Position numbers and translations under genes: made by a program. This document shows positions 2,424-20,049 of a DNA stretch of 64,000 bases, piece after piece. Position 1 is the first letter of the stretch; every line of letters begins with the position of its first letter. Below the pieces are notes generated by a model. That model was given only the letters and a program-made list of their open reading frames with translations, did not search any database and was not told the origin of the DNA. This stretch comes from Candidatus Bathyarchaeia archaeon (lineage in GTDB: Archaea > Thermoproteota > Bathyarchaeia > Bathyarchaeales > Bathycorpusculaceae), in NCBI GenBank assembly GCA_050010515.1, contig JBEKKX010000022.1:1-64000 (forward strand), in the 5' to 3' direction.

Positions 2424-2437
2424 TTATTAGTCTCGAA
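2424..2437 (+). repeat. left att core TTATTAGTCTCGAA
   Basis: Identical to 20036-20049; about 35 bp from the integrase stop codon. Confidence 0.85.
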
Positions 2438-2471
2438 GGTCGCGTTTTTTGATTAATAAACGCCTTTTCTC

Positions 2472-3620
2472 TCATGCCTTAATCCTCCGATACAGATGCA
2501 CTCCTCCGATTTCGTCGTATTTGGTGTAGCCTTGACTAGCCAGTTTTTCAGCTTCTTCCACTGTTGAAGCTCTAGCTGTCTCCCAGTCTAAATCATTGAA
2601 AACTACCGTGTTGGTGTACTTGTCGGTGGAGTTGCTGCTTTTATGGCCTAGTTTCTGTTGAACTTCTTTCTGGGGCCTAAGCTGCTTGATTAAGCGGTGT
2701 GCAAAGCCATAGCGGAAAGTGTGAATGTGGATTAGACTAAGCCGGTCAGCTTCGCCTGGGTTCTCTCTACAAATTTTGAGACGTAAATTCTTGAATTGGT
2801 CAGTGTAGGTCTTCGGGTGTGGGCAGAAAATATACGGCTGATATTTACGGTTTAAGGATTGGATTCTTGCTATTGTGGCTTCAGGTACTTTGATTGTTCG
2901 GGGTCTGCTACCTTTTTCAGGTTGATTGATGCTGATTGTGCAGTTAGCGGTGTTAAGGTCGGACCATTTGATATGGCAAACTTCCCCGCGTCTTGCTCCA
3001 GTGTCATGTGTCGCTAAAAGGTAAGTTCCTAATCGGTGTCCTGCGGCGTTAACATATAGTTTTAATTCGTCAGGTGTTGCTATGAAGGCTTCTTTCGGTT
3101 GATAGTTGGTTTTGATTGGCTCCCAGAAAATCTTTAGCGTTTTGCAGTAGCTTTTGTAGCTGCAAACTGCTATGTATTTTTTGCTTGGTTTCTCTTTGTC
3201 GTTGTACTCGGGTTCAACTGCTAAAACGGTTTCGACTGATTCAGGATTTTTAAGGTCGGCTCCTTTTCCGATTAATCCGGCAAGCACTGAGCAGCGTACT
3301 GTTATCGTGTTGTCGCCTAATCCTCTCTTTTTCAGCTTCCAAGCGTACTCTAAGAGACTACTTTCTTTTACACCCGCAACAGTCTTGATTTCTGTTGACG
3401 GTTCCAAATTTTTCGCCTTATCCTGCAGGATTGCGCATATTTGGCTATCCTTGACATTAGTATTCTCAACATTTAACACTTGCCCATTACTAAAACGGAA
3501 ACCGCAACTTCTACATAGAAACCTCTGTGCTTTACAGCCGTCACTCAAAACTCTAAGGCCATCTTTAAAGAACTTCTCACTATGACAAGAAGGGCATTTA
3601 ATAGCGATTTGAGACTCCAA
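2472..3620 (-). CDS. tyrosine integrase with N-terminal Zn finger
   Basis: Full catalytic set: TGARRGE (R), EKG (K), HTFR, LGH, DKY; N-terminal CPSC...CRSC. Confidence 0.92.
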   Translation of the reverse strand: MESQIAIKCPSCHSEKFFKDGLRVLSDGCKAQRFLCRSCGFRFSNGQVLNVENTNVKDSQICAILQDKAKNLEPSTEIKTVAGVKESSLLEYAWKLKKRGLGDNTITVRCSVLAGLIGKGADLKNPESVETVLAVEPEYNDKEKPSKKYIAVCSYKSYCKTLKIFWEPIKTNYQPKEAFIATPDELKLYVNAAGHRLGTYLLATHDTGARRGEVCHIKWSDLNTANCTISINQPEKGSRPRTIKVPEATIARIQSLNRKYQPYIFCPHPKTYTDQFKNLRLKICRENPGEADRLSLIHIHTFRYGFAHRLIKQLRPQKEVQQKLGHKSSNSTDKYTNTVVFNDLDWETARASTVEEAEKLASQGYTKYDEIGGVHLYRRIKA

Positions 3621-3622
3621 TT

Positions 3623-3913
3623 TTAGGAGCCTCCCTTAATTTTTCGGGTTTCAAGATGGTTTTTGCCTACAATTTTCATATTACAAGAGGCACACCGGAC
3701 AGCGCCATGCGTCCGAAGTCGTTTGTTACAGTCAACACAGAAATGCTTGCCATTGAGGGAGGCACGATTTGAGAAAGTCACTATAACAATCGGCGGCTGT
3801 TTACTCCGAGCATCAACAGACTTTAGCAAGGCCTCAAGGTTGGAGAGTTTCTTTTTCAAGCTGTCAGGTGTGTAGGATTCGAGAATTTCGTTAACGCTTT
3901 CTGTTGCGGTCAA
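3623..3913 (-). CDS. small Zn-finger protein
   Basis: CVDC...CASC; TTG at 3913 overlaps the helicase stop and follows GAGGAGG. Confidence 0.65.
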   Translation of the reverse strand: MTATESVNEILESYTPDSLKKKLSNLEALLKSVDARSKQPPIVIVTFSNRASLNGKHFCVDCNKRLRTHGAVRCASCNMKIVGKNHLETRKIKGGS

Positions 3914-5925
3914 ACTGAATCCTCCTCTGGAGCGCCTATATAGCTGTAACCCGGACATCTTAACGGAATTTCAGATAGCTTGTTTAAATCTCCCCAGTTA
4001 GGCGCCGTGCAACTTGGCTTATCGAAGTTAACACATTCAACAGAACAATAACGCTTAGGAGTTGGCGGTGTTTCTAGTGGTGTTGTTTTCCAGATACGCA
4101 TTTCTCGCCTTGACCCTTTTGGTACTACCTCAAAATTCCAACCACTTGCAATAATCGCGTTTTTAGAGTTGTTAAGTTGATGAGTAAAATAACATGCAGC
4201 AGTAGGCCAACGTTTGCTTTTTACATTCATATTAAGCTGGGTGGCCGTGGAAGTAACCTGATTAAAAACATAGTCAGGAGTGTTAACCCCAGGGTTATCT
4301 TCAGTAGCATTAGTAAGAGCCAAGTTTTCTTTACAATACGCTAGAAAGGCGTCAGCTACTACGTTATTCTCAATGTCTGCCGTGTTTTGACTTTTCAAGT
4401 TCTCTTCCATAGCCTCAATAAAATCCTCTTCTTTTTCACCGAGAGCAACAGCCAAGATACAACCCCATTCTGTAAAATCTGATAGCCGAAAAAGTTTTGA
4501 AGGCTTAACCGTATCTTTAAGATTCAATGCTTTAACAATGACATCAAGAAAACCGCTCAAAATTTCAGGTAAAACTTTGTTAAATTCTGTTTCAAGTTCT
4601 TGATCTGTGCGACGCTCAACGTTTGGCTCAGTTGGATGCATGATTGTCCTATTCAGTAAGTCGCCTTTAGTTACTGACAAATTTAAGCCATTAAGCATGA
4701 TACACCGCTTAAACGAACGAATAAAAGAATCATCATCAGTATACAATGCGCGACTCTCTTGACCCGCTCCAGTTACAGCTTTGCATAACATCTCACTAAA
4801 CCATCGAGGCAAATATTCCAAGTTGTCAAAAATCGGTATGTAATGATGATCTAGCACTTGGAGAGCTGCGTTTTCATCTCTCGGAATCCCAAGCAAAGGC
4901 GCTGAAGAAGGGTCGAATACTGTTCGGATATACCTCTGTGCTGTACTCTTATGTGAGCCGGGGCAGCCATGCATCTCGTTAACTGGATGCGAAATATCAG
5001 GGATAAAGTAAGATGCAGATTGCACCAATAATAAAAGCTGTCTATGAGCGGTCAGCACAGCGTCTTTACATGCACCAATATTAACAAAGGGTAAAAGTTT
5101 TCTTGGATCGCCATGTTGCACTGCCTCAACTAACGGTCTTTGATGATCGTAACGTATAAATAAAATAGGCACATTTACCTCAAGACACCAACCGTTTTTA
5201 GTAATGTGATAAGCCCTATGTCGTGAATCAGCCATGTCTATCCATATTGACCCGTCGCCGCTGGGGTCGAGAGCTACACGGTTAGACATTTTATAATATT
5301 TGCCGTGTGCAGCGGTATACTTCAATAGTTGAATAACTTGAGTCGAGGATTCTCTGTTTAAAATTGTTTTCTCTGCTTCATATAAAAGATGTGATAGATA
5401 TGTTCTAAATTTTTCCTCTTTTAATCTTACTATTTCCTTTGACGCACTTACGCACTTGACGGTATTCCCGCAATCTTTTATGCCTCCTTCTGGATTACAA
5501 TCTCCCTCTTTTACCTCATTAATTTTTTTCAGCGGTGGTGTAGAAGTTTCAGAAACAGCGTCAACTGCGTCAACTGCGTCAAGGTCAAGAGGCACACATG
5601 CAAACTCTATTTTGTGTTGGTCATGGAATAATTCGATATTGCTTTCACAAATTAACTTATAAAGTCTTTCAGCTTGAGAGCCCTTTTTTTCTTTTTCCTC
5701 TTCTGATTCACCGTTTTGTTTTGCTTGTTCTTTTGCAGCTTCTTTTAGTTGTTTTGCTGTTGGTTCTGTTTCTTCTTTGTCTAATATTGGTTGTTTTAAT
5801 GGGTCGTTTCGTGCGTGTGCTTTTTCGCATGTGTAAATTTGTTGTCCGTTTTCGGCTATGTAGCTGGGTACTACTAGGCCTCCGCATGTTCGGCAAACTA
5901 GATTAAATTTTATAGCGTCGGTCAT
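3910..5925 (-). CDS. putative replicative P-loop ATPase/helicase (SF3-like) with N-terminal Zn finger
   Basis: Walker A GCPGSHKST, Walker B IPIFDN, LCKAVTG..RALYTD and DLLNR motifs typical of mobile-element replication ATPases. Confidence 0.75.
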   Translation of the reverse strand: MTDAIKFNLVCRTCGGLVVPSYIAENGQQIYTCEKAHARNDPLKQPILDKEETEPTAKQLKEAAKEQAKQNGESEEEKEKKGSQAERLYKLICESNIELFHDQHKIEFACVPLDLDAVDAVDAVSETSTPPLKKINEVKEGDCNPEGGIKDCGNTVKCVSASKEIVRLKEEKFRTYLSHLLYEAEKTILNRESSTQVIQLLKYTAAHGKYYKMSNRVALDPSGDGSIWIDMADSRHRAYHITKNGWCLEVNVPILFIRYDHQRPLVEAVQHGDPRKLLPFVNIGACKDAVLTAHRQLLLLVQSASYFIPDISHPVNEMHGCPGSHKSTAQRYIRTVFDPSSAPLLGIPRDENAALQVLDHHYIPIFDNLEYLPRWFSEMLCKAVTGAGQESRALYTDDDSFIRSFKRCIMLNGLNLSVTKGDLLNRTIMHPTEPNVERRTDQELETEFNKVLPEILSGFLDVIVKALNLKDTVKPSKLFRLSDFTEWGCILAVALGEKEEDFIEAMEENLKSQNTADIENNVVADAFLAYCKENLALTNATEDNPGVNTPDYVFNQVTSTATQLNMNVKSKRWPTAACYFTHQLNNSKNAIIASGWNFEVVPKGSRREMRIWKTTPLETPPTPKRYCSVECVNFDKPSCTAPNWGDLNKLSEIPLRCPGYSYIGAPEEDSV
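5439..5582. repeat. inverted iteron-like repeats around an A/T tract; candidate origin
   Basis: TTGACGC-like x3 (5439, 5448, 5456) facing GCGTCAA x3 (5558, 5567, 5576). Confidence 0.55.
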
Positions 5926-6077
5926 GGTTGTTCAGCTCCGCAAACGCCCGGGCTTTCATTAATCAGGGTTTTCGCAATTTCCCATTTCAACCGTGAGCAA
6001 ACATACCTGAATGTATCTTTGGTTATGGTTTCTTTAGTGAGATGCTTACAGCTATTACAGCAAAAATCTTTAGTCAA
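5922..6077 (-). CDS. small Cys-rich protein
   Basis: CCNSCKH...CS...C; TTG start overlaps the upstream stop, with GAGGAGG SD. Confidence 0.6.
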   Translation of the reverse strand: MTKDFCCNSCKHLTKETITKDTFRYVCSRLKWEIAKTLINESPGVCGAEQP

Positions 6078-6241
6078 TGAAAAAGCCTCCTCTGAGTTTT
6101 TGCTCTGCAAAAAAAGGTTTTTTTCCGTTGAATCTGAAGGCCATGTTTAGGCGTGTAAATTAATGTTCTTCCATCTTTAAGATTGAAGATAACACTTTCA
6201 ACATCAGCCGGATTCAGTTTTTCAAAAGGTAGCTGAAGCAA
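6074..6241 (-). CDS. 55-aa hypothetical protein (below the ORF-track cutoff)
   Basis: MLQLPFEKLNPADVESVIFNLKDGRTLIYTPKHG...; fills an operon gap and its stop overlaps the next start. Confidence 0.5.
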   Translation of the reverse strand: MLQLPFEKLNPADVESVIFNLKDGRTLIYTPKHGLQIQRKKTFFCRAKTQRRLFH

Positions 6242-6243
6242 AC

Positions 6244-6468
6244 TTAAGCATCCCCTGGCAATCGTCGCTCGCCTATTTTCCGGTTAGTTTTGGCACGCCA
6301 AACTTTGCAGCCTACCCCTCCCCCATGATTGCATGCATAATTTTTAGGGTTGAATTTGTTTTCTCGCTTACATTCAAACTCGAATTTGCAGGGATATTTT
6401 TCTGCTTCTTGAGCTTGGCAGTGTTCTTGAAGTGGTTTAAAATTGGTAGTAAATCGGTTCAATGGCAA
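6244..6468 (-). CDS. small Cys/His protein
   Basis: CKFEFEC...YACNH...C; part of the coupled operon. Confidence 0.55.
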   Translation of the reverse strand: MPLNRFTTNFKPLQEHCQAQEAEKYPCKFEFECKRENKFNPKNYACNHGGGVGCKVWRAKTNRKIGERRLPGDA

Positions 6469-6584
6469 AACCTCAAGGTCATCATCATTTTTTCGGTAAA
6501 ATCAGCGCACTTAGTCGGTTCGTGGTCGCAAGCATATTTTCCGAGTTGGTAGTTGGCACAGTTTCTAAATTCTTTACAGGTCAA
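6459..6584 (-). CDS. 41-aa Cys/His mini-protein (below the ORF-track cutoff)
   Basis: MTCKEFRNCANYQLGKYACDHEPTKCADF...; abuts both neighbouring genes. Confidence 0.5.
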   Translation of the reverse strand: MTCKEFRNCANYQLGKYACDHEPTKCADFTEKMMMTLRFCH

Positions 6585-6770
6585 TTATGGTCTCTCCCTT
6601 TCTCCAATCGGCAAAAACTGCTTACACGCTTTCCATGATGCGTGTGTTGAGTAGCCTAAACGACAATGACTAGTCGTGTACTGTGTGAAGAAAGTGCAAT
6701 TATGGCAAAACTGAGGTTTTGGCGCTTTAGGCTGCAAAAAACTTAAAAGGCTTCGATTGCTATCAATCAA
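6585..6770 (-). CDS. small Cys-rich protein
   Basis: CHNC...C...C; overlaps the upstream stop. Confidence 0.55.
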   Translation of the reverse strand: MIDSNRSLLSFLQPKAPKPQFCHNCTFFTQYTTSHCRLGYSTHASWKACKQFLPIGERERP

Positions 6771-6990
6771 TAACGGTAGTCTCCAGTATCGTGTCAGGTG
6801 CGGGGGATTGCTGGCTAACGTGCTTCTCCTGGCGGGGGGTCACGTTAGTCTTTTTAGTTTTATTGATTCTTGTAGAGTCAAAACGGTGTCCACACCTAGG
6901 ACATTTCACCGGCAGATCGACTCTTGGCTGCCATGTGTTACCACATCGGTCACACATGAGTTTTATAACTTCCTCTTTGATTGTTTGCAT
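6763..6990 (-). CDS. Zn-ribbon protein, first gene of the leftward operon
   Basis: CDRCGNTW...CPRCG pattern common in archaeal viruses and plasmids. Confidence 0.7.
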   Translation of the reverse strand: MQTIKEEVIKLMCDRCGNTWQPRVDLPVKCPRCGHRFDSTRINKTKKTNVTPRQEKHVSQQSPAPDTILETTVID

Positions 6991-7010
6991 GGTTTCTTCT
7001 ATACTGTAGA

Positions 7011-7040
7011 TTAATTTAAATCTTGTTGTATCTGATACAA
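7011..7040 (-). promoter_or_regulatory. TATA-like box with adjacent palindromic operator for the leftward operon
   Basis: TTTAAATT 23-30 nt upstream of ATG 6990; perfect palindrome TTGTATC-T-GATACAA at 7026-7040. Confidence 0.55.
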
Positions 7041-7071
7041 TAATTAGTGAGGTAGGTAGGTAAGAGTAACA

Positions 7072-7227
7072 ATAGTTAACCGCTATTATAGTTAACCGCT
7101 ACAAAATATAGCGCATAACTACTCTTTTTAAACAATTTTAGCGTTTAACTAAACCTAAGCGAGGATATACTAAAACGTAAGAGAGGATATAGTAAAACGT
7201 AAGAAAAGCATCTATTAGCGTCTATTA
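7072..7227. repeat. three paired direct repeats
   Basis: ATAGTTAACCGCTA x2 (7072, 7088); GAGGATATA[C/G]TAAAACGTAAGA x2 (7161, 7183); GC[A/G]TCTATTA x2 (7208, 7218). Confidence 0.8.
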
Positions 7228-7479
7228 CTTTTTATGTGTGGGGGGTTGCTGGCTAGTATATTTTTTCCATGGCTGAAGGTGCGCGCGCACTTTTACAAAA
7301 GAACTTTTTTCTTATGAGGGAATCGGGAGATTATCAGAAAAGCAGAAAGCAAGGCCACGACTTACGACTCAATTTTTATCACCTTCTCCCGTGTTCCCTT
7401 TCCTCCGTTTCCTTTCTGAAAAACTTGTGACATATGAAGGAAAAACCACTTTAAAACAGAAAACCCACATAATTGGTTG

Positions 7480-7565
7480 GGGCAATCCAGAAGGCTTAGT
7501 ACCCGAGTGAAAAAGTCTATTCAGCTGAGCAGACTTTCTGCGACAGTTGTAAGGGGCTTAGTTAC
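7480..7565 (+). repeat. long inverted repeat, left copy (86 bp)
   Basis: Reverse complement of 11752-11834 except for an extra GTC at 7515-7517. Confidence 0.95.
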
Positions 7566-7632
7566 TCTTTCTCATGATGAACATCGGTTATCAAGTTAAT
7601 CGTATGATACAATAGGAGAGAACCCTTTTCTC

Positions 7633-7642
7633 TTTTTCTATT
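7633..7642 (+). promoter_or_regulatory. element motif TTTTTCTATT (first of 8 exact copies)
   Basis: Also at 7911, 8766, 9569, 10877, 11887, 14934 (+) and 14787-14796 (-), each just upstream of a start codon. Confidence 0.7.
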
Positions 7643-7655
7643 GAGGTCTTTAGAC

Positions 7656-7886
7656 TTGGTTAAGAAGAAAAACGATGTAAAGAGCGCGTTTTTAGTTTTG
7701 GTGTCCATGATCTTATTTGTTTTAGGTACAACACTTCTTTATGGTGCGCTGACACTTCATTCGATTAGTCTGATGGGCTATACACTTGCCTTTTCCACTG
7801 TGCCTCTATATCATATGTTGACGTTCGACCTTGGTGCAATCTTTTTCTTTTCTGGATTAATCACTCTAATTTATGCGTTTACTTAG
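7656..7886 (+). CDS. small two-TM membrane protein
   Basis: Two hydrophobic segments; TTG 7656 follows GAGG. Confidence 0.65.
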   Translation: MVKKKNDVKSAFLVLVSMILFVLGTTLLYGALTLHSISLMGYTLAFSTVPLYHMLTFDLGAIFFFSGLITLIYAFT

Positions 7887-7933
7887 CCACCGAAAACACC
7901 GCTAAACCTTTTTTTCTATTAGAGGTTTCACCA

Positions 7934-8419
7934 TTGAGTTATCGTGGTAATCAAAAGGGTAATTATGGCAATCAAAAAAGGGGTCATGTAGGGTTTTTGG
8001 GTAGAAAAAAGAAGCCGAAACAACCGAAAGAAGAGGACGTTGTTTATTTCAGAAACGCGGATCCTCCAGAGCAAAAGATACAACCTGAAACTGTGGCATG
8101 GCAGAACAGACCGTTAGATCAAGGCGTAAGTCTTTTTCTTGTTAGACCAACGACTTTCACGGTTCCAGGTGCAAAAACGGTTTTGCCTTCAGACCTGACA
8201 CTGCAAGAAAAGAACGCTTATGAAATTGCGCTTTTATCCGAAAGTCAAAAACTGGGTCTAGAAGCTGTATCAGGTGACAGCTCAGTAAGAAAATATCGAA
8301 TCCTCAAAACAGTCGACCAACTGCCAACAGATAAACCCTTGAGTTTTAGTGATTATCAGTTTATCGGAAACATCAAAAATAGCTTACGGAGTCACGGCTA
8401 TACAGTTTTGCCTCAATAA
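7934..8419 (+). CDS. hypothetical protein with basic MSYRG N-terminus
   Basis: ORF with SD; N-terminus shared with the 8790 protein. Confidence 0.7.
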   Translation: MSYRGNQKGNYGNQKRGHVGFLGRKKKPKQPKEEDVVYFRNADPPEQKIQPETVAWQNRPLDQGVSLFLVRPTTFTVPGAKTVLPSDLTLQEKNAYEIALLSESQKLGLEAVSGDSSVRKYRILKTVDQLPTDKPLSFSDYQFIGNIKNSLRSHGYTVLPQ

Positions 8420-8500
8420 CTCTAAGTCAAGAGAATTCTCTACACTTTCTGAAGATATACTTCGTATTCTACTCCCATTTAGTTTTCTTTTGATGATTCA

Positions 8501-8761
8501 ATGGGTAGCAAGTCAAAAGGAATAGGCATTTTATTCTTACTCCTTAGCGTCTGTTCGTTCTTAGTCAATTTTCACGTTTGGACGCCTTTTCTAATCGGAA
8601 AAATAACGTTTCTTTGGGATCCACTCAGTTATTTTAGCGCACGAATAGTTGGTAAAATCGTATTATTTGGGTCATCGCTCATTACATATTTGAACTATAT
8701 TTTTTCGTTGTTTTGGTCAGCATTTCTTTTCTTTATTGGTTTGATCTTGATTTCTCATTAA
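8501..8761 (+). CDS. small membrane protein
   Basis: Hydrophobic, 2-3 TM segments. Confidence 0.65.
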   Translation: MGSKSKGIGILFLLLSVCSFLVNFHVWTPFLIGKITFLWDPLSYFSARIVGKIVLFGSSLITYLNYIFSLFWSAFLFFIGLILISH

Positions 8762-8789
8762 ACCATTTTTCTATTGAGTGATTTGAAAC

Positions 8790-9551
8790 TTGTCATATAG
8801 AGGTAAACCTAAAGGCTCTTACGGTCAACAGAGGCATGGAACAAGCACTTTTAAAAGTTTTGGCAAGGGAAAACCAAACGCTGATACGTTGAAAGCGCTC
8901 AGGTCTTTTGAGCACACTTCAGATCAACATTCTGCTAAAGACCTTATGAAGTTCGCGGAGATAACGCCTACCGTCATTGTGTACTTGCAAGCATGGAGAG
9001 GCATAAGCAACAGTGAAATGAAAAGAATCATGGAGAGCAAAGGCGATAAGGCTAAAGCTGAAAAATTGGCTCTGATTGCACGTCGACGGGGTTCTGCCAA
9101 ACTTATGATTCAGGATAACAGCAAAAAAGGCAAGGTTTCCCGACATCATTTCAAGATTGTTAAAAAGAAAGCTACTAAAGAACCTGAGAAGGCTAAAGAA
9201 ATCGTTAAAGAGGCTGAAAAGGAACTTGCAAAAGCAGAGACTAAAATCATAAAAGAAGAGTCTCATTTACCCTCTGAAAAAGAGATTCTTGACCGAGCAC
9301 AGCAACTTTATCAAAAAGAGAACTTTAAAGGCAAATACGAAGATAGCGCGGTTGAACAACTACCAACAAAAGGCGAACTTAGCGAAGAGGGCTATCTGCA
9401 AGCTGCCAAACTTGATTTAATGACGAAAACAGATACAAAGGCGTCAAGAGATGTCATGGATTACGTCGAAGGCATAAAAAACGAGCTAGAAAAAATCGGT
9501 TTCACGGTTGAACCGCTCGCGGGTTTTGACGTCACAGACCTAAAATATTAA
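8790..9551 (+). CDS. Lys-rich hypothetical protein with MSYRG N-terminus and probable coiled coil
   Basis: 253-aa ORF with a K/E-rich helix. Confidence 0.75.
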   Translation: MSYRGKPKGSYGQQRHGTSTFKSFGKGKPNADTLKALRSFEHTSDQHSAKDLMKFAEITPTVIVYLQAWRGISNSEMKRIMESKGDKAKAEKLALIARRRGSAKLMIQDNSKKGKVSRHHFKIVKKKATKEPEKAKEIVKEAEKELAKAETKIIKEESHLPSEKEILDRAQQLYQKENFKGKYEDSAVEQLPTKGELSEEGYLQAAKLDLMTKTDTKASRDVMDYVEGIKNELEKIGFTVEPLAGFDVTDLKY

Positions 9552-9592
9552 TCCCTTTTTTCTTTTGTTTTTTCTATTAAAGGCGTCTAAAA

Positions 9593-10864: not shown

Positions 10865-10901
10865 CCCTTTTTCTTGTTTTTCTATTAGAGATGTAATTAC
10901 A

Positions 10902-11720: not shown

Positions 11721-11751
11721 AGAATAGCCCTTTTTCCCTTTTTTAAAAAAT

Positions 11752-11834: not shown

Positions 11835-11910
11835 ACATTGGTGTATCTATTTTCCCGGACGCATGTATTATTTAGGACATTTCCCTTTTTTCTATTGTTA
11901 GGTGTTACGA

Positions 11911-13641
11911 TTGAAACTCAAGAAACTCTTAGTTATCTCTCTAATTACGCTACTCTGTCTCTCAGTTTTAGTTAGTCTTTCAACGATTCCAATGGCTCAC
12001 GCTCAGAGCTATAATATTCAATCTATTCAAGGCCCTATCACTGGAGAGGCTGATAGCGGAACAACCGTAACGTTCACGCTTAACTCTGCACCTATTAGCG
12101 GTGACCTTTTGATTGCATGTATTGGAGGTACGGGTTCTGCAGGTGAAAGTATATCGAGTATCACGGAAACGGGAGTTACATGGACGCCTCAAGAAACTAA
12201 TACTGCTAATACGGGTTTTGTGACAGCTATTTGGGCTGGAGTAGTAGGTTCTGGAGCTGTAAAAGGAGGCACCGTTACTTTTAGTCAAACATTAAACGGT
12301 GGTACTTTCGCGTATGTTGACGAGTATTCAGGGCTTTTGACAACTGGGTTTTTAGACAAAATTAATCTTGCGTCAGGTACAAGTACAACGGCTGCCACTG
12401 GAACAACAGCCACAACAAGCGATGCTAACGAGCTAGCTATTGGTGTCATATTTGGTGGCGAGGTCTTTAGCTCTCAAACTAACGGATTCACGCCTTACGG
12501 CAATACGGTGTATGACTATGACGCTATGGTTTATTTGTCACTGATTGTTAGTCAAACGGGAGCTCAAAGCTGTAGCATGACTCAAGCAAACGGCTATACC
12601 TTTCAAGGTTGTATTGCCACTTTTATCGCTGCTGCTGTAGTTACTACCGCTCAAATTATTTTCACTTCTAACCCGACTGGGAGCGGATTCATAACTGTTA
12701 ACGGAACGGCAGAGACAACGCCTTACACAATCGCCTCTGCTAACATAGGTGACACTTACGACATTTCAGCGAATACTCCAGCAAACACAGTGACGAATGA
12801 AACCCAATATGTTTTTACTCAATGGGCTTCGACTTCGATAGGTACTAAAACAACCGCGAGTTATGCTTATGTTGTGCCTGCAGTTGGAGAGACTGTTACA
12901 GCGTCTTTTACTGAGCAATACGCTATAGCTCCGTCCTCTGATTCTGATTCTTCTCTTACGCCTTCGACTGTGACCTGGGTTAACTCTGGAGGCAATCAGC
13001 TTTTCAGTTACACGGCTAACACTGGGTATGCTATAGCAACCGTTATGATTGACGGTGTACCGTTTTCGATAACTGGGAGTTATCAGTTTTCCGATGTCGT
13101 AACCTATCACACTATTTTAGTCACTTCGATAAGTACAGCAACACCGACAGCGCCGCCTAGTGGATCAACAGGGGGAGGTACTTATCCGAATCCTCCGACT
13201 GGAACTTTAACCGTGAGTAATGTAGCTCTCGGATATTTCAGCGTGAATCAAACAGGGTCAGCTAGTCTAACGCTAACTTTTACTGATAACTCTTGGACGG
13301 TTGAAAGCGTAACTTTCGGAACTCCGTTTAGCACTTGGGTTTCTGCCAATGTGCCGTCGGGTCAATTTACGGCTGGAGTGTTGCATGTACCTATAAGCTA
13401 TGCAGTTCCTTCTTACATGACTACTGGAATATTCACTGGAACGGTCACGGTAGTTGTGCAGGATGCTTGTGGAACAACCTATACGGGTACTTCTAAAATC
13501 ACGATTACCATTTTGCCGACTCCCGTAACTAACATCATGGGCTATATACACGCTCACCTTTTGCTTGTTTGTGTAGCTGCCATTATCTTTGTCTTAGCTA
13601 TTTGTGGCTTAATTGCTACGTTCTCAAGGCGCCGCCATTAA
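11911..13641 (+). CDS. large Ser/Thr-rich adhesin-like surface protein
   Basis: MKLKK signal peptide like the 9593 protein (TTG 11911 preferred over 11902), beta-rich domains, C-terminal TM and RRRH. Confidence 0.8.
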   Translation: MKLKKLLVISLITLLCLSVLVSLSTIPMAHAQSYNIQSIQGPITGEADSGTTVTFTLNSAPISGDLLIACIGGTGSAGESISSITETGVTWTPQETNTANTGFVTAIWAGVVGSGAVKGGTVTFSQTLNGGTFAYVDEYSGLLTTGFLDKINLASGTSTTAATGTTATTSDANELAIGVIFGGEVFSSQTNGFTPYGNTVYDYDAMVYLSLIVSQTGAQSCSMTQANGYTFQGCIATFIAAAVVTTAQIIFTSNPTGSGFITVNGTAETTPYTIASANIGDTYDISANTPANTVTNETQYVFTQWASTSIGTKTTASYAYVVPAVGETVTASFTEQYAIAPSSDSDSSLTPSTVTWVNSGGNQLFSYTANTGYAIATVMIDGVPFSITGSYQFSDVVTYHTILVTSISTATPTAPPSGSTGGGTYPNPPTGTLTVSNVALGYFSVNQTGSASLTLTFTDNSWTVESVTFGTPFSTWVSANVPSGQFTAGVLHVPISYAVPSYMTTGIFTGTVTVVVQDACGTTYTGTSKITITILPTPVTNIMGYIHAHLLLVCVAAIIFVLAICGLIATFSRRRH

Positions 13642-13955
13642 ACCTCTTTTCTTTTAAGTTTCTTTTTCTTATGGAGTGGCCAAAGGGTTTCTTCAGCCTT
13701 AATTTCTTCACGTATTTTGTCAACAACATCTTTCCCTAAAGCATTTTCAACACGCTCAGAAGCTGAAAGTGTAGATTTATCTGAACCCCCATGAGGAACT
13801 TGTTTGAACTCGTCGTGGAGATACCCTATGACGGTGGATCTTTCAAGACCTATAACTTCTACAATTTTCTCAATTATCTCGTTTTTATGTTGATTCTCAA
13901 AGCCAGAATGCACTTTGCAGGCTACTTCCAGTCCATGTATCAATGCTTTGCCCAT
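13638..13955 (-). pseudogene. HTH fragment resembling the ParB-like protein's HTH region
   Basis: KIVEVIGLERSTVIGYL versus EIVAKIGLSHTTVDRYY in 18977-19933. Confidence 0.4.
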
Positions 13956-14125
13956 TTGGGCTAAACATTGGTTGGAATCCCTTTTGACCTTGTCATCGGA
14001 GCTCTCGTTGGTGCGTAACGCATGCGGTACTTTTGAAATAGTTTTAGAAATGCAAAAACAAGTTTGCTTTTCAGTTATGGGAAAGTATCCATGCTTGAGT
14101 GTTTTAGAAGCTGAAAACCTTCAAG

Positions 14126-14773
14126 TTAGATTTCTTTTTCTCTTTCAGCTTTGTCAGAATCAACGGTTTTCCAGTTGGTTGCAGCATAACTGTTTCGTGG
14201 TATAGGTGCGTAAGAACCTGCTTGGTGTCGTTGTTCTTGCATGGACGCATAACTGTTTCTTGGGAGTCCTGCATAACTTACAGTTTTCAGCGTTAGCAAA
14301 TCCTGAAACAACAGGTTTACGTCCCGATTGTTTAATGTGGCCTCAAAACCTTTTGGAACAACCGGCTGTGGCTGCCATTTCTTTCCTCTCTCCAAATCGT
14401 AATCCGCCTTGAAATCATAGAACTCTGGGGTAATAAAAACGGGTGCCTCAATCTTAACGTCATTCTGATTTTTCAAATAAGTTATGCGAGCTCTAAACTG
14501 AGGCTCTCGGTTGTAGTGAACTTTGTATCTCCGATAACTTGTTACGCCTTGAAACCCTCTTCCAGCTAAATGTTTTTCTACTGAAACAACAGCGGTTTCT
14601 TGTTGATAATCCTGCCAGATATGCCTTGCAGCGACAAGCAACACATTATTTTTTAAATCACTCCAATCTACTATTCTATCCTCATAGACCGTGAGGACGA
14701 CAACAATTTTAAATTTGTGAGCCTTCCTTTTTCCAGGTCTTAGAATCTGTGCGTACACCGAGTAGTCTGGCAT
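14126..14773 (-). CDS. hypothetical protein with a C-terminal SYAxxPRNSYA duplication
   Basis: 215-aa ORF with upstream motif and GGAG SD. Confidence 0.7.
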   Translation of the reverse strand: MPDYSVYAQILRPGKRKAHKFKIVVVLTVYEDRIVDWSDLKNNVLLVAARHIWQDYQQETAVVSVEKHLAGRGFQGVTSYRRYKVHYNREPQFRARITYLKNQNDVKIEAPVFITPEFYDFKADYDLERGKKWQPQPVVPKGFEATLNNRDVNLLFQDLLTLKTVSYAGLPRNSYASMQEQRHQAGSYAPIPRNSYAATNWKTVDSDKAEREKEI

Positions 14774-14852
14774 AATTTATTTCTCCAATAGAAAAATAAT
14801 AGAACCTATGTTTGGATGGCTTAAGGGTTTTTAACTCAAAAAGGCATACAAG

Positions 14853-14870
14853 TCCGTTGCCTGCAACGGA
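14853..14870. promoter_or_regulatory. palindromic operator-like site between divergent genes
   Basis: TCCGTTGC-CT-GCAACGGA. Confidence 0.5.
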
Positions 14871-14951
14871 TACCGAACTGCTTCAGAACTAGCCTATCAT
14901 TTTAGAGATTATCCATGCGTTACTAAGCAAACATTTTTCTATTGAACGCTT

Positions 14952-16043
14952 ATGTCAGCAATAGAGAAAGAACTAGGTGAAGAGGTTGCTAAGTTTCTAA
15001 GGGCTATCTCTCCGTCTAACCCTGAAGCACCGGATAAGCTGGGTCCTTCCGCTCAAACATATTATCCTGGGCTAGGTTGGTTTCAGCGTTACCTTGTTGA
15101 ACAATCCCTTTCTAAAGAATCTGCTTTCCCTAGAATCAAGTCAATCCATCTTTTCCTAGTTGCTGTTAAGGCGGATGCAAAAATTGAGAACTCACTCAAG
15201 CGTTGTTTTCCTGATCGAGAGCTGCTTAAGACTTTTGCAACTAGCCTTCTTAAAGAGAACAAGGCGCCTAAAACTGTTAGGTCTTATGTCGGCTCAGTTC
15301 AATCTCTTGCTAAATACTTCGACATTCCAATTACTACAGCCTATAGCGATCTGCCTCCGGCTATTGCAGAGAACGAAAAATATCCCTGGAGTATTGAACA
15401 AGTCGGAGACTTCATTAAGTCTTTTGATTCACCGATGTATAGATGCCTTGGTGTTTGGTTCATTCAAACGGGTCTAAGCAATTACGATCTGTTGCACATG
15501 CCTTATAGCAAAATAAAAGAGCAGTACGAGAATAGCATCAACCCGTTCTGTCTCAATCTTGTGAGGCATAAAACGCGTAAGTTTGAAATCAAGTTTAGGG
15601 CCTTCATCGGTACTCTTGGCATTCGGTACTTTCGCACGTACTATGAGAGTTTGGATCATGCACTCTCGGATGATGATTTGATTTTTAATGTTAGCTCTGT
15701 AGCTGTTGAAAAGTATTTTGAGCGAAGGGCTAAAGAGTTTATATCTAAAGACAAACCGAAAGAGCGCAAGAAGAAAAGCAACTTAACCGTTAACCCCGTT
15801 GCAACCGTAGACGACCCTATTACCGCCACGTTGAAAAAGAAACGGAATCCAATGTGTCCTAGTTCTCTGCGAACTGGGTTTAGAACTTTCTTGAGTGACG
15901 GCAAGGTTACTAACTCAATCATTGAGTACCTCATGGGCCACAACCTAACAAGTGATCTGGAAAAGACATACACCAACAAGTCAGATGATTCATGGAGAAA
16001 GACTTGGCAAGAGTTTGAACCTCTATTAACCTTTCAGGTCTAA
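14952..16043 (+). CDS. second tyrosine recombinase-family protein with atypical active site
   Basis: APKTVRSY, QTGLS, RHKT, SSLRTGF, EYLMGH, KTY. Confidence 0.85.
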   Translation: MSAIEKELGEEVAKFLRAISPSNPEAPDKLGPSAQTYYPGLGWFQRYLVEQSLSKESAFPRIKSIHLFLVAVKADAKIENSLKRCFPDRELLKTFATSLLKENKAPKTVRSYVGSVQSLAKYFDIPITTAYSDLPPAIAENEKYPWSIEQVGDFIKSFDSPMYRCLGVWFIQTGLSNYDLLHMPYSKIKEQYENSINPFCLNLVRHKTRKFEIKFRAFIGTLGIRYFRTYYESLDHALSDDDLIFNVSSVAVEKYFERRAKEFISKDKPKERKKKSNLTVNPVATVDDPITATLKKKRNPMCPSSLRTGFRTFLSDGKVTNSIIEYLMGHNLTSDLEKTYTNKSDDSWRKTWQEFEPLLTFQV

Positions 16044-17032
16044 GCAATCTAGGGGGAGCTGGCTTCAAAAATCAGGGAAGTTGAGTAATTTTGTTAAAAA
16101 GTGTACAGCAGGCGGTACACTTTCTGACCGTATTGCATACTCACTTCTTAAATTTGACCATGAAACTCAAGATAAACTTGCTAAAGCTATCATAAATTAG
16201 CGGTAAGTCCAGTTGAGTTCAGTGCGGTAAAGAGTTTCTTGGTTTGGATTTGTGAGGCTTGTATCTCTCACCTGCCTACCATGTCGAACTTGGCGGATTT
16301 TATACTGTACTTGGTTCTGGAAAAATAACTTTTGTCTTTTCTCTATGGAAACGTGCACGTATATAACGTTTTTTCAGTTCAAAAAAATTTTTGTGAGTGA
16401 AACATACATCAAACGCTCTGTTTGTTTAGCTATAACTAAGCTAACACGTTTTACCATAGATAGAAAGAGCATACCCCCCAAACAAAATAGATTCGCACCC
16501 GCGATTTGCTTTTTCCTAGCGCTAGGTTAACAGTATTAGTGTTTCTCAGGGGCATCGCATAAAAAAATGTAACGCTGCCATATATAAGCCCGTCCATGCT
16601 TGAGGTACACGATTCAGGGATTTCAGCGTTATTTTTTGCTGTCAAAAACATAATCTCTATGGGAAACCAACATAGCAATAATGTAAACATAACATAAACC
16701 CTTACTTTTGGGGTTTTGTAATGCATAAATCCAGCTTTTCCATGAAAAGAATCTATTCAGTGGTAATTTAACCTATGGTGAAATAGCTAAATGTTGCGGT
16801 TATGTGTAAAATTGTGAGAAAAACGTAATCTTTGCCCTGAAAAAGTACGGAATCCGAGCCTAAATTAACCTTCTTTTGGGTTACTGTTTTCATTGTAACG
16901 CATAATTAGCCCAAAGAAAGATTGCTTTTTCAGTGGTTTTTACCCACTTACAGCGCCGAAATATCCTAGTCCATTTTGGACAGACCTATCCTGATTCTGT
17001 GAATAGTTATTTTTCTTATAGAAGGTAAGTAT

Positions 17033-17668
17033 ATGACAAATGAAATTGCAAAGTTTCCGTCTTGTGTCCGTGAGTTTATGGCTGAATTAAGCGGTTACAT
17101 TAAAGCAGACACAACAGTTGACAAATACTTGAAAACAAGCGATCCAGTAAGCATCAAGGATGGAATAGTGCGGATTAACATAAAGCATGAAGTTGCGGAA
17201 AGTGCTGCTAACTATAATCAATTTATCAAGGATTTTAAGGCTGCAAAACAGAAATATCATGCCTTGTCAAGCTACACGGACACCGTTGTACATGTTAAAC
17301 CTGTGCCAATTGAAGAGACAACAGTAAAATTCATGCCTAATTATTATATGCAAGGCGTCCACATTGAAATTTTGCTGAAAGACCTGGTGCTGGATAAGCT
17401 AGGCTATTTTTTTAACCCTGATTCCGAGTTATCTATACCGGATAGCATACAGATACTCCGAAATTGTGGGATGTCCGATATGGTCATCATGCGTAGCTTG
17501 GGTAGTCCAAGAACTACGTTTAATCGTTACTGTAAAATCTTAGATTCTAAAGGGGCCATGGGAGAAACCAAAATGGACACTAAAGAAACCAAAGAGGACA
17601 CGGCAAAAACCATTTTGGACACGTCTCAAACTGAGCAAAAAACCGAGTTAACCACTGTACCAAACTGA
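17033..17668 (+). CDS. hypothetical protein with probable HTH
   Basis: GMSDMVIMRSLGSPRTTFNRY helix-turn-helix-like segment. Confidence 0.65.
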   Translation: MTNEIAKFPSCVREFMAELSGYIKADTTVDKYLKTSDPVSIKDGIVRINIKHEVAESAANYNQFIKDFKAAKQKYHALSSYTDTVVHVKPVPIEETTVKFMPNYYMQGVHIEILLKDLVLDKLGYFFNPDSELSIPDSIQILRNCGMSDMVIMRSLGSPRTTFNRYCKILDSKGAMGETKMDTKETKEDTAKTILDTSQTEQKTELTTVPN

Positions 17669-17902
17669 AAGGAAGAGTGACCAAAACGGACAACCCTGTT
17701 TTACCTTGCCAAACACCAAAATTCAACGGCTGCAAAGGTTGTCAAGCTGTCAACTGTTGCACACGACGCTGTAGCCACTAAAAATTAGTTCTTTTTCTAA
17801 TAGGGATAAAACCCTGAGAGGCTGGGGATCGCTTTAAATCCGCTCAGCCGATAACTCACGGATTGATGAAAAAGCGGTTCCCAGTGTTTTTTTTTTGCAA
17901 GT

Positions 17903-18976
17903 TCACTGTTTAAGCACCTTAGCCTCATAGTCGTCAAGAAACTCGGAGCTTAAGTTTGGGGTACTGTGTTTTTTCTTGAAATCAGCATACTCGGCAATCA
18001 AATTAGCTATTGCATAGTCAATGTGCAAATGAGGCTTTGCTTTTATGATCTCGGTTTTTTTTCCGAAATCCAATAGACAACGTAAAAACACTGTGTCAAC
18101 AAGCCGGTTTATTCTAGGTCTTGAATTGCCAAAATATTTTAAGGTGGCTCTAGCTTGCCTAACCTTACGCGCTAACGTGTCTCTAAACTTCAGGTCCGAG
18201 ATTCCGTATTTATCGCAAATAAAAGAAGAGTAGCTTAAGACGCCTTTGTTGTCGTTAGCGAAGCTATCAACAACCCTCCCCAATTTAGATTTTCTCAGAG
18301 GCAGGTCTTGCTGGTTGAACAAGTTATCAATGTCAGCAACAGGTAGCCTCCGCACGTAGCCCTGGCTTAAACGGTAAAAGTAGGCGTCATTGTTGGCAAA
18401 GCGGCTTTTGGTAAATTTGCTTGCTTCTTGTGGATTTGTCTTTTGAAACTCGGATAAATCAACGTCATTATTAACAAGTAGCTTGTGAATTTCGGTGCCC
18501 TTTAACGTGCAGCCTAAACCGTCAGTAAAACTTAACATGCTTGAGGGTTGAAAGGTAACGTCGCGGTCTAAACTATCATCGAAGGGTATGCTTTCGTCAT
18601 AGGAGGCGCCGACGCCGACCACTAAGCCGCAAGCCAGGCAAACTTTTTCTCCGTCGTCAACCTTATCCGTGAGAGTTTCACACAAACACTCAGGGCAAAC
18701 AAGGTCCAACTGATCGACCCTAACGACGCCTCCCATATTCGACGCTAACCATGCGTCAAGAATCCCTTGATATTTAGCTAACTCATTTTTGCTGTCAAGG
18801 CCTAGTACTTTTCTTAAATTCTCAGGATCAGTAATGTTTTCTCGATACTTAAGCTGGAAAAGCTGTTGATGCAGTTTCATGTCCGGGAGAAGTGCCAGAT
18901 ATTTCTCTTCTGAAAGACCGCTATTCCTAACGTAAGCCAATATTTGTTCAGTGTTTCCGTTTAGTTCAACCAACAT
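17903..18976 (-). CDS. divergent TFB/TFIIB-like protein
   Basis: C-x2-C-x15-C-x2-C ribbon with GEKVC..CGLV matching the host TFB spacing, then PSSMLSFTDGLGCTL resembling host PTSYSVHDKGLSTAI. Confidence 0.65.
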   Translation of the reverse strand: MLVELNGNTEQILAYVRNSGLSEEKYLALLPDMKLHQQLFQLKYRENITDPENLRKVLGLDSKNELAKYQGILDAWLASNMGGVVRVDQLDLVCPECLCETLTDKVDDGEKVCLACGLVVGVGASYDESIPFDDSLDRDVTFQPSSMLSFTDGLGCTLKGTEIHKLLVNNDVDLSEFQKTNPQEASKFTKSRFANNDAYFYRLSQGYVRRLPVADIDNLFNQQDLPLRKSKLGRVVDSFANDNKGVLSYSSFICDKYGISDLKFRDTLARKVRQARATLKYFGNSRPRINRLVDTVFLRCLLDFGKKTEIIKAKPHLHIDYAIANLIAEYADFKKKHSTPNLSSEFLDDYEAKVLKQ

Positions 18977-19933
18977 TTACCATCGCTCTTTTGCTGTTTT
19001 AAGAAGCTCTTGCAGGGTACCTTCTTGCTCAATGAAATCCAATAAGACCTCAACCGCGACAGTGAGACATTCGTTAAGTCTTTTCTGCTTAAACTCTTGT
19101 GAAGGGTCAACCGCTAAGTTATAGACAGCATGTTTAAAATCATCGGGTAAATCGGCTTTGGCGTCACTGATTAGCTTTTCAAGTGTTTGCTGCTCTTCGT
19201 TATTTTCAGCGATTAAAGCGTCAATCTTCTCTTCAGAGGTAGGCTCTTTGGTTTGCCGTTCCCAGTTGGGAACGGGATTATCGTTAAGTAACTCAGGTTC
19301 AACCGGTAAAACCGTTGACGTCAACGGTTCTTTTTCAGTGAAAGTATTCACGTGAATACTTTGTAGTTCTTTAACTTCCGTTGATTCTGCAGGTTGTTGT
19401 GTGGCTTTGAGAGCTCTTGCCTTGCCGCTTGCGATTCCAAGTTGAGAATGTTCTTGGTCTTTCAGTGGTTTCGGATAATAGCGGTCAACGGTTGTGTGAC
19501 TTAACCCGATTTTGGCCACAATCTCTTTAACGCTTAAGTGTCCTTCAGTGGCAAGAAATACTATGTTTTTCTTGAGTTCTTCAGAGGTTCCTTTTCTCCG
19601 ATTGAAGTTAATTGCTGTGCTGTAAAGTACCCTATCGACTTCAGTAATGCAATTTTTCAGAATAATCTTAGTGTATTGAGCGTTAGGGCATTCGGTTAAT
19701 CGATGAAAACCGTCAACAAGCGTCACGCCGTCAGCCATATAGTAGATTGGAGTGATAGGGCCTAGGTTCTGTATGCTTTCTGCAAGGCTGTAACCTTCTT
19801 CATCATCGACAGCAACGATAGTGAAAACTTTGTCGCCGTTAACAGTTTTTTCTTGGATTGTTTTAAACTGAGAATGGTTCTCAGGGGTACTAATTTTTTC
19901 ATTGCTTTCGCTAATAGATTTTTCACTGATCAA
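18977..19933 (-). CDS. ParB/Srx N-terminal domain plus HTH protein
   Basis: LAESIQNLGPITPI, LVDGFHRL, NFNRR and an HTH. Confidence 0.8.
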   Translation of the reverse strand: MISEKSISESNEKISTPENHSQFKTIQEKTVNGDKVFTIVAVDDEEGYSLAESIQNLGPITPIYYMADGVTLVDGFHRLTECPNAQYTKIILKNCITEVDRVLYSTAINFNRRKGTSEELKKNIVFLATEGHLSVKEIVAKIGLSHTTVDRYYPKPLKDQEHSQLGIASGKARALKATQQPAESTEVKELQSIHVNTFTEKEPLTSTVLPVEPELLNDNPVPNWERQTKEPTSEEKIDALIAENNEEQQTLEKLISDAKADLPDDFKHAVYNLAVDPSQEFKQKRLNECLTVAVEVLLDFIEQEGTLQELLKTAKERW

Positions 19934-20035
19934 TTTTAAAACCTCTACAACTGTTCTTATTTAGATAAAATTGAGAACCAAAAAAGGAAAAAAGGGAAGG
20001 TTGTGTTTTGTGCGGGTGATATCTCCAATAAAGAC

Positions 20036-20049
20036 TTATTAGTCTCGAA
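20036..20049 (+). repeat. right att core TTATTAGTCTCGAA
   Basis: Identical to 2424-2437. Confidence 0.85.

Follow-up and report, generated by a model that had tools for sequence, protein, structure and literature searches.

Between a gene of the beta-RFA-P synthase (MptG) family and the gene of a response regulator, the genome of a peat Bathyarchaeon carries about 17.6 kb of DNA that is bounded by a short direct repeat and contains no recognisable capsid or conjugation gene, and the question it raises is what kind of mobile DNA this is. The element occupies positions 2424-20049 of the 64,000 nucleotides of contig JBEKKX010000022.1 (assembly GCA_050010515.1) that were analysed, hereafter called the window. 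An earlier interpretation made from the letters and their open reading frames (ORFs), here called the sequence-only reading, had proposed a novel archaeal element class. We consider it probable that the insert is an integrated plasmid-like mobile element, also called a cryptic integrated element (CIE). The claim of novelty has to be scaled down, since Krupovic et al. 2019 (PMC6563490) show CIEs to be already established in Thaumarchaeota; the insert represents a new Bathyarchaeia family in a known category and not a new class.

The 14-bp sequence TTATTAGTCTCGAA is present in two exact copies, at 2424-2437 (left attachment core, attL) and at 20036-20049 (right attachment core, attR), with a start-to-start spacing of 17,612 bp, as the sequence-only reading had stated, and these are its only two occurrences in the whole assembly (2.38 Mb, 66 contigs). 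By itself, the repeat is weak evidence of an element because the window holds 32 exact direct repeats of at least 14 bp (repeated 14-mers in 30 block shuffles of the window: mean about 10, maximum 22). The decisive evidence is provided by empty sites in two genomes of the same genus. The left-flank DNA was searched for in 41 genomes (the host genome G000 and 40 relatives), of which seven matched, the host included. In G004 (locus L002), window positions 226-2437 align at 91.5% and positions 20036-21528 at 93.8%, the 14-bp core being precisely the part that both alignments share. In G016 (locus L008), positions 2358-2437 are joined to 20036-20603 over one core. As the flanks meet over a single core in both genomes, the insertion is real and its ends are exact. 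The comparison with uninserted relatives that had been suggested along with the first interpretation has thus borne out the insertion, and the locus combines a direct repeat with a one-copy empty site, as a site-specifically integrated mobile element does.

The same picture is found in natural populations, for which contig-based metagenome runs were used throughout, five of them being possible sources of the assembly. Element DNA was detected in 20 of the 22 listed peat, wetland, and soil runs, in 18 with at least half of the sampled words. Depth and contigs were compared over window positions 1500-21499 in runs X11, X4, X2, and X6. In X11, the flanks have a depth of 158-283 and the interior a depth of 3-6 (flanks about 30-70 times deeper), position 2437 is connected in contigs with the right flank (at 20096 and, with a depth of 59, at 20224), and one loose end consists of a diverged left flank immediately before 20036. 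The dominant related strain in X11 is without the insert, and because the closest relatives lack it as well, the insertion is recent. A diverged variant of the element co-occurs in X4 and X2, as patchy pieces at 90-95% with depths of 32-39 and 5-7, respectively.

The position between mptG and a response regulator also holds up, as does its description as an intergenic non-tRNA site. The left neighbour reaches 225.8 bits for TIGR00144 (cut-off 113.5), and the right neighbour encodes a response regulator with a stand-alone receiver domain. The insertion site is free of tRNA genes, the only two tRNAs of the window being found at 40.5 and 56.6 kb, and neither the site with the insert nor the empty one matches an Rfam family. 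The possibility that a tRNA or a small RNA serves as the target at attB was considered and rejected on these grounds, the fold z-score being only -2.2. The 80 bases to the left of the core accompany, in G016, the response-regulator side and not mptG; it is therefore probably the region 5' of the regulator gene that the insertion divides.

A candidate for the recombination itself is encoded directly beside attL. This tyrosine integrase (2472-3620, minus strand, 382 aa, with an N-terminal zinc ribbon) matches Pfam Phage_integrase (PF00589, 7.7e-18, 65.3 bits against a cut-off of 27.1), PHROG_1 (4.3e-25), and the XerA-type recombinase structures 4A8E (4.5e-8) and 5HXY (1.1e-6); NCBIfam recomb_XerA_Arch is matched at 9.6e-16, under its cut-off. 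Besides the catalytic domain, the R..HxxR..H..Y motifs of tyrosine recombinases can be read from the translation as ARRGE, HTFRYGFAH, LGHK, and KYT. The ORF is intact and lies 35 bp inside attL, so the enzyme is not a 'suicidal' integrase of the SSV type. Within the gene, a stretch of about 70 nt (window 3373-3445, encoding ..QICAI..AKNL..TEIKTVAG..) shows 78-92% DNA identity across many genomes of the genus, in proteins that are just about 37% identical overall. The idea that it is a tRNA-like attP was dropped, as ARAGORN found a tRNA in none of seven fetched loci, all seven being integrase genes, and in the alignment the encoded peptide is conserved while some codons differ synonymously. The stretch looks like a strongly conserved protein motif, a linker between the zinc ribbon and the core-binding domain, and not like a DNA site. 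The integrases of G053 and G104 (65-68% identity) were likewise discarded as evidence on attB, given their unrelated cargo, their other sites, and the absence of the core word.

A second, divergent tyrosine-recombinase-like protein of 363 aa is encoded at 14952-16043 (plus strand). It has no Pfam match and is connected to the family through PHROG_1 (8e-6) and through hhalign against the integrase family (probability 24.9%, E 7.8e-4), in which QTGLSNYD is paired with DTGARRGE and a Ser stands at the usual position of the first catalytic Arg. Its counterpart in the related element of G115 (344 aa) is 67.5% identical. Elsewhere in the host genome, another integrase of the same family as the first is found at a contig end (C9:66648-67949, 30% identity), and a low-GC contig of 14.7 kb contains a 40% match (C51:1237-1494) to the N-terminal zinc-ribbon region of the replication protein described next; both are possibly traces of further mobile elements.

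The 671-aa protein encoded at 3910-5925 (minus strand) begins with a zinc ribbon, which an acidic linker connects to a P-loop helicase-like module. We interpret it as a putative replication protein (Rep) because its homologues sit on small plasmids, in a phage gene labelled primase or helicase, and in PrimPol fusions. The distant homologues on small plasmids come from 29 plasmid records, many of them from Streptomyces and labelled ATP-binding protein, and the best is found on the 12-kb plasmid NC_016637 of Methanothrix harundinacea 6Ac (2e-37). Among the 45 relatives found, many are 950-1030 aa long and begin with a Prim-Pol domain. PF09250 is precomputed in 7 of the 45, and our own scan of seven relatives detected it, together with PriCT_1, in P0003, P0006, and P0041 (best 6.8e-30). 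According to the alignment of the family (A1), Rep corresponds to the C-terminal two thirds of these long proteins, its short zinc ribbon standing where they have the primase, and it is 56-68% identical to the Prim-Pol-fused forms; it thus has the homologous C-terminal P-loop NTPase module of PrimPol-S3H proteins and not their N-terminal Prim-Pol. The residues G320, G323, and K326 in GCPGSHKST, corresponding to GxxGxxK(S/T) at residues 320-327, are invariant in A1, and this Walker A motif together with the relatives makes helicase activity plausible. A tblastn search with the N-termini of 11 relatives revealed no PrimPol coding sequence in the rest of the element or of the genome, and Rep would depend on host priming since it has no primase-polymerase domain of its own. 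The short form is nevertheless a natural variant, as relative P0004 has a similar length (693 aa) and also lacks PrimPol.

Near attR, two directly abutting genes on the minus strand, which for that reason probably form one operon, encode a ParB-like protein of 318 aa (18977-19933; PHROG_2159, 1.9e-10) and a protein of 357 aa with a TFIIB-type zinc ribbon at residues of about 90-122 (17903-18976). Counterparts of the ParB-like protein in G115 (68% identity) and G103 (52%) have the same neighbour gene. A 7-member profile of the 357-aa family matches the TFIIB zinc-ribbon structure 1PFT at 1.2e-8, PF08271 matches six of the seven members, and in hhalign against a host TFB only 36 ribbon columns align (probability 95.5%). 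The TFB used for this comparison is one of two canonical host genes and is found at window positions 40894-41832, about 21 kb from the element. The N-terminal zinc ribbon of TFIIB/TFB is thus present and the two cyclin-fold repeats are not: PF00382 was found in none of the seven family members and in none of 20 database relatives, and a genome-wide PF00382 search recovered the two host TFB genes and not the 357-aa gene. The protein accordingly seems to have the RNA-polymerase-docking part of TFB and to lack the TBP- and DNA-binding part. The sequence-only reading had listed integration, replication, partition-like, and transcription modules as well as membrane and surface proteins; genes of all these kinds are found, and the transcription module is weaker than was thought, being reduced to the TFIIB zinc ribbon. 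A further gene (17033-17668, plus strand, 211 aa) lies beside this operon in relatives too; its protein-atlas look-alikes all have a TM below 0.5, and no phage match was found.

When the genus was surveyed (101 genomes, the host included), Rep was found in 20 genomes (11 others at E<=1e-50), the ribbon protein in 7, the 253-aa protein described below in 7, and a 215-aa protein in 5. Such a patchy distribution is as expected of mobile DNA and not of core genes, and the element is patchy both across the genus and in natural populations. The gene content of the relatives was determined by local tblastn on fetched neighbourhoods. In G115, where the element is spread over two contig ends, the integrase and the 344-aa recombinase-like protein are both represented, as are ParB and the ribbon protein (77-80%). 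The 111-aa and 211-aa proteins, small Cys-rich proteins, a small membrane protein, and proteins of 163 and 241 aa were also found there. Rep in G115 is a different P-loop protein of 679 aa, genes for the beta-propeller and 272-aa surface proteins are absent, and a 92-aa anchored fragment resembling the C-terminus of the 579-aa surface protein replaces that gene. G081 has kept the 161/253-aa pair and has homologues of the 272- and 579-aa surface proteins. In G103, Rep (with D5_N and DUF5906), the 111-aa protein, ParB, and the ribbon protein are contiguous; this is the order obtained across attP after closure of the element, which argues that its two ends belong to one circle. The elements of G115, G081, and G013 and those on metagenome contigs appear as one common backbone with different cargo and Rep type, and the relatives found in databases carry the names of Candidatus Bathyarchaeota or Bathyarchaeia metagenome-assembled genomes.

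The 20 ORFs of the element were scanned against Pfam, PHROGs, NCBIfam, and PADLOC, and no capsid, terminase, portal, packaging-ATPase, or type IV secretion system (T4SS) family was found in these four libraries, in agreement with the sequence-only reading. The VirB4-like and VirD4-like ATPase pair of an archaeal integrative-conjugative element (ICE) was not detected either. In the whole assembly, which is 98.5% complete, no VirB4, VirD4, or AAA_10 (PF03135, PF02534, PF12846) was detected, so that no helper ICE was found in the genome, and none of these families was detected among 32 ORFs scanned in the neighbourhoods of G103 and G115. The element can in this way be placed among CIEs, as it is without conjugation genes and without viral hallmarks, the latter being a non-detection with fold-level data for one protein. 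PADLOC reported no defence genes; two matches with E of about 1e-3 were both short stretches.

From these parts, the following life cycle may be proposed for a cryptic integrated element. The attP of a circular form would recombine with the 14-bp attB 5' of the response-regulator gene, a reaction that the element's own intact XerA-like tyrosine integrase could perform. The circle would be replicated from a cis site, driven by the 671-aa P-loop helicase-like protein with priming borrowed from the host. The ParB-like protein and its TFIIB-ribbon partner may handle segregation and/or steer the host RNA polymerase, and a short upstream motif would mark a co-regulated block of membrane and surface proteins. 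For transfer, the element has no known machinery of its own.

Two non-coding regions are candidates for the cis site. The first is the AT-rich intergenic region between divergent gene blocks at 7015-7479 (7.0-7.5 kb), which has a GC of 0.30 at 7000-7199, two copies of the 14-nt sequence ATAGTTAACCGCTA at 7072 and 7088, and a 22-nt unit repeated 2.5 times at 7151-7204; it may be an origin or control region. The second is a non-coding block of 168 nt at 16712-16879 (16.7-16.9 kb), which with 89% identity is the best-conserved DNA relative to the G115 element, above any gene. A cis function, for instance as an origin or a centromere, is possible. No significant RNA fold (z +0.59 and -1.0) and no Rfam match were found for this block, which also contains a small palindrome (CTTTTC-CAT-GAAAAG).

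The upstream motif is TTTTTCTATTR. An exact word search located eight copies in the window, all of them inside the element at 7.6-15 kb and 5' of ORF starts (7633, 7911, 8766, 9569, 10877, 11887, 14786 on the minus strand, and 14934), and the motif precedes eight to nine ORF starts of the element. The spacing is mostly 12-15 nt and about 7 nt before the 14952 gene, with the starts at 7656 and 11911 re-assigned by us. With at most one mismatch, 17 matches were counted, whereas 100 shuffles gave 8.0 on average and 14 at most. Genome-wide, 26 exact copies exist, and the element, with 0.74% of the DNA, has 8 of them. Since the motif is also found 5' of genes in the relatives G115 and G081, it appears to be a family-specific expression signal, acting either as promoter or in translation initiation.

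The genes behind this motif begin with a small hydrophobic membrane protein (listed ORF 7641-7886, 81 aa; start placed at 7656/7659, thus 7656-7886, plus strand), which has homologues in related elements at 1e-6 to 1e-8. It is followed on the same strand by a 161-aa protein (7934-8419), a second small hydrophobic membrane protein of 86 aa (8501-8761, homologues in G101 and G098), and the 253-aa signature protein of the element family (8790-9551). The 161- and 253-aa proteins share a basic Gly/Arg-rich N-terminus and appear to be paralogues, the former cross-matching a member of the 253-aa family at 6.2e-7. The 161-aa protein has homologues of 37-47% identity in G115, G081, and metagenome contigs and no family match in Pfam, PHROGs, or NCBIfam. 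The predicted structure of the 253-aa protein gave no viral or PDB fold match and no usable protein-atlas match.

Next to these, three plus-strand genes encode predicted surface proteins of a common layout, consisting of a signal peptide, a globular domain, a Pro/Thr-rich linker, a membrane anchor, and a basic tail. The first (9593-10864, 423 aa) has YVTN-type beta-propeller repeats (beta_rpt_yvtn 1e-33 in NCBIfam, Lactonase 1.2e-14 in Pfam) between its signal peptide and a Pro/Ser/Thr linker with C-terminal anchor and basic tail, and paralogues of it occur elsewhere in the host genome. The second (10902-11720, 272 aa) has a signal peptide, a globular domain, a Pro/Thr linker, and a C-terminal anchor, and the third (11902-13641, 579 aa) a signal peptide and a C-terminal anchor; both have a G081 homologue. 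Hydropathy profiles underlie the assignment of all three surface proteins and of the two small membrane proteins. The domains of the 579-aa protein are common to host surface proteins, with partial paralogues on C29, C58, C38, and C35, and neither the phage collection nor IMG/VR contains a match to the protein.

Six of these genes, the first membrane-protein gene through the one for the 272-aa protein, lie between the arms of an inverted repeat. Its left arm of about 90 nt (7480-7570) is complementary to the right arm (11747-11834) over 35 nt at 100% and 53 nt at 96%, with a 3-nt indel, and the repeat is unique in the genome. In G115, an inverted repeat of another sequence (37 nt, 95%) occupies the equivalent place, around the membrane, 163-aa, and 241-aa genes (L059 13700-13736 and 15914-15950), and three other related regions that were scanned have none. 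As the arms are near-identical within an element yet different between elements, ongoing exchange between them, by inversion or conversion, is suggested. In X2, X4, and X6, contigs end at the arms (7509/7536 and 11781/11805), as they would at any repeat longer than the assembler's word. The independent 11.3-kb metagenome contig L073 has the segment in the same orientation as the window, and no second orientation was seen.

The remaining ORFs are small or lack family matches. Upstream of the integrase gene, on the same strand, lies the gene for a 111-aa protein with a C-terminal Cys cluster (3623-3958, minus strand), whose homologues in G115, G103, G013, and the metagenome contigs L080 and L081 are 61-66% identical; it adjoins the integrase or Rep gene in relatives. 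It gave weak sub-threshold library matches and none above threshold in Pfam, PHROGs, and NCBIfam, and it may be a recombination-directionality or regulatory factor. Four small Cys-rich or zinc-ribbon ORFs (5922-6110, 6244-6468, 6585-6770, and 6763-6990, minus strand) all have homologues in related elements, the last with weak zinc-ribbon matches. Two minus-strand ORFs within 13638-14773, namely 13638-13955 (105 aa) and 14126-14773 (215 aa), are without a family match in Pfam, PHROGs, or NCBIfam. The 215-aa protein has relatives of 24-28% identity in four other genomes (100 searched; alignment A4). Near its C-terminus, a peptide occurs twice (YAGLPRNSYA and YAPIPRNSYA), encoded by a 30-nt direct repeat at 14184-14213 and 14247-14276.

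Several observations weigh against the interpretation as a cryptic integrated element. Element and left-flank depths are similar in X4 (55-60 and 51-62), X2 (11 and 11), and X6 (5-9 and 8.7), which amounts to one copy per host genome, with no sign of a multicopy episome and nothing indicating episomal replication. Of the two junctions that spanning reads were hoped to reveal, the empty site was recovered in the X11 contigs, and neither attP nor any other circle junction was present in the contigs of the four runs; this is a weak point since contigs drop rare forms. Rep has no direct match in Pfam, NCBIfam, or the PDB, and the ParB label comes from one PHROG_2159 match, with none in Pfam, NCBIfam, or the PDB. 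Furthermore, about 13 of the 20 ORFs are without a useful match (12 with none or an unusable one, and the 111-aa protein with weak ones). The search against capsid folds that had been proposed covers one of them, the 253-aa protein, so unmatched ORFs including the 161/253-aa pair and the small membrane proteins could be virion parts.

It is for these last two reasons that we keep a provirus under consideration, although we think it unlikely. In this explanation, the element would be the integrated form of a Bathyarchaeia virus that has escaped recognition and probably contains a membrane (pleomorphic or spindle-like), with the hydrophobic, 161/253-aa, and anchored proteins as virion components. 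The block of small membrane, 161-aa, 253-aa, and anchored surface proteins is conserved in related elements and has a family-specific upstream motif, and size and integrase are within the range of small archaeal proviruses. A Bathyarchaeia spindle-type provirus with two-helix capsid proteins is described in PMC10848311, and thaumarchaeal cryptic elements are said, in PMC6563490, to be possibly new viruses or plasmids. On the other hand, no PHROG or Pfam structural family was matched, the small-membrane-protein family reached an hhalign probability of 0.2% against SSV1 VP3 (the single reference protein compared), the model of the 253-aa protein has no viral counterpart, and Rep is the only P-loop gene. 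IMG/VR contained no relative of the 671-aa protein, the 579-aa protein, or the alignments A1 (Rep) and A2, and tblastn of the 579-, 215-, and 211-aa proteins against the phage collection gave no match at E<=1. None of 17 inspected short DNA matches in relatives lay within a periodic CRISPR repeat array. The domains of the surface proteins are common to host proteins, two of the three genes (beta-propeller and 272-aa) have no counterpart in G115 and the third is a 92-aa fragment there, and the depth of about one copy per host also speaks against a virus.

A more speculative variant, to which we give a low probability, is that the proteins of the conserved block (small membrane, 161/253-aa, and anchored surface proteins) coat the virions of a new kind of Bathyarchaeia virus, wrapped in a membrane and without a capsid, or the vesicles of a 'plasmid-vesicle'. 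The ribbon protein would capture host RNA polymerase for the upstream motif of the block, and the inverted repeat around the block, here and in G115, may be co-evolving. To the satellite, vesicle-borne-plasmid, and pleomorphic-virus ideas of the sequence-only reading, the data give neither support nor refutation.

Very unlikely, in our judgement, is a mobilisable or satellite-like element, that is, a cut-down descendant of an ICE that has kept the ParB and TFIIB-like pair and is transferred by a helper (a conjugative element, a virus, or vesicles). A TFIIB homologue beside ParB is a signature reported for thaumarchaeal ICEs in PMC6563490, the same pairing occurs here with no T4SS gene, and a Rep without its own primase domain indicates dependence on other functions. 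The absence of VirB4, VirD4, and AAA_10 from the nearly complete assembly and from the G103 and G115 neighbourhoods counts against this, as do the lack of a helper in the assembly and the fact that the 357-aa protein has the TFIIB zinc ribbon only and is linked to the ICE gene by description. Hardly to be expected, finally, is an immobilised remnant, a genomic island integrated once that has lost excision and replication: the missing attP junction, the copy number of about one, the PrimPol-less Rep, and the second recombinase-like gene without the first catalytic Arg would fit, but the att cores are identical to each other, all 20 examined ORFs are uninterrupted, the integrase has kept its catalytic motifs, the insertion is recent, and the short Rep is a natural variant.

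Bathyarchaeia are abundant in peat and sediments, and the literature on their mobile elements is sparse beyond hallmark-gene viruses. In PMC10848311, capsid genes were the basis on which Bathyarchaeia viruses were identified (54 of 56 contigs), and one spindle-type provirus is among them. Recent large provirus surveys retain only hallmark-gene elements (PMC13573593) and would miss elements such as this one because hallmark genes are required. A literature search on Bathyarchaeia mobile elements yielded virus and provirus surveys and no description of this element family. The proven empty site, the 14-bp att core, the intact integrase, and the replication gene provide a concrete start for the study of gene flow in uncultured archaea, and if the recombination and replication functions are active, they could be of use in genetic tools. 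The element furthermore indicates that the ParB and TFIIB-like pairing reported for thaumarchaeal ICEs occurs without conjugation genes, and that its TFIIB part can shrink to a polymerase-binding ribbon.

Members of the Pleolipoviridae have genomes of 7-17 kb with small membrane proteins, an anchored spike-like protein, and a conserved NTPase gene, and some of them integrate. By this list of features only, the element resembles them in size range, small membrane proteins, an anchored surface protein, and integration; their conserved NTPase gene has no counterpart here, where Rep is the only P-loop gene detected with Pfam, PHROGs, and NCBIfam. With spindle-shaped proviruses (Fuselloviridae and, in PMC10848311, the Bathyarchaeia 'Huangdivirus'), it shares a small size, a tyrosine integrase, and small hydrophobic and basic proteins. 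In contrast to them, its integrase is unsplit, and nothing resembling SSV1 VP3, no PHROG structural match, and, Rep aside, no AAA+ ATPase were found.

The plasmid Reps of PrimPol-helicase type have a homologous C-terminal P-loop module (28% identity over 66% of the query for NC_016637), whereas the protein studied here starts with a zinc ribbon instead of a primase-polymerase and has no direct match to a curated helicase family. Compared with thaumarchaeal ICEs, the element likewise integrates by a tyrosine integrase and has a ParB-like gene adjoining a TFIIB-similar gene, probably in one operon; a TFIIB homologue adjoins ParB in all thaumarchaeal ICEs according to PMC6563490. It differs from them in that no VirB4/TrbE, VirD4/TraG, VirB6, or pilin genes were found, that the order is ParB and then the ribbon protein, and that only the TFIIB zinc ribbon is detectable.

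The closest comparison is with the thaumarchaeal CIEs. In Krupovic et al. 2019 (PMC6563490), the integrated elements of Thaumarchaeota are sorted into proviruses, casposons, IS-like transposons, ICEs, and CIEs. The CIEs make up 48 of the thaumarchaeal complex integrated elements with a median of 17 kb, 15 of 68 mapped elements sit in intergenic sites, and some CIEs encode primpol-S3H proteins. The element described here differs in its Bathyarchaeia host, in a Rep without the primpol domain, in a ParB and TFIIB-ribbon operon, which the same text reports for ICEs instead, and in a conserved module of uncharacterised proteins, which an inverted repeat encloses in this element and in one relative, the comparison being one of descriptions only. 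It agrees with the CIEs in the combination of a tyrosine integrase with a replication protein of the same family, in the absence of viral and conjugative hallmarks, and in a short att core, an intergenic target, and a size of 17.6 kb.

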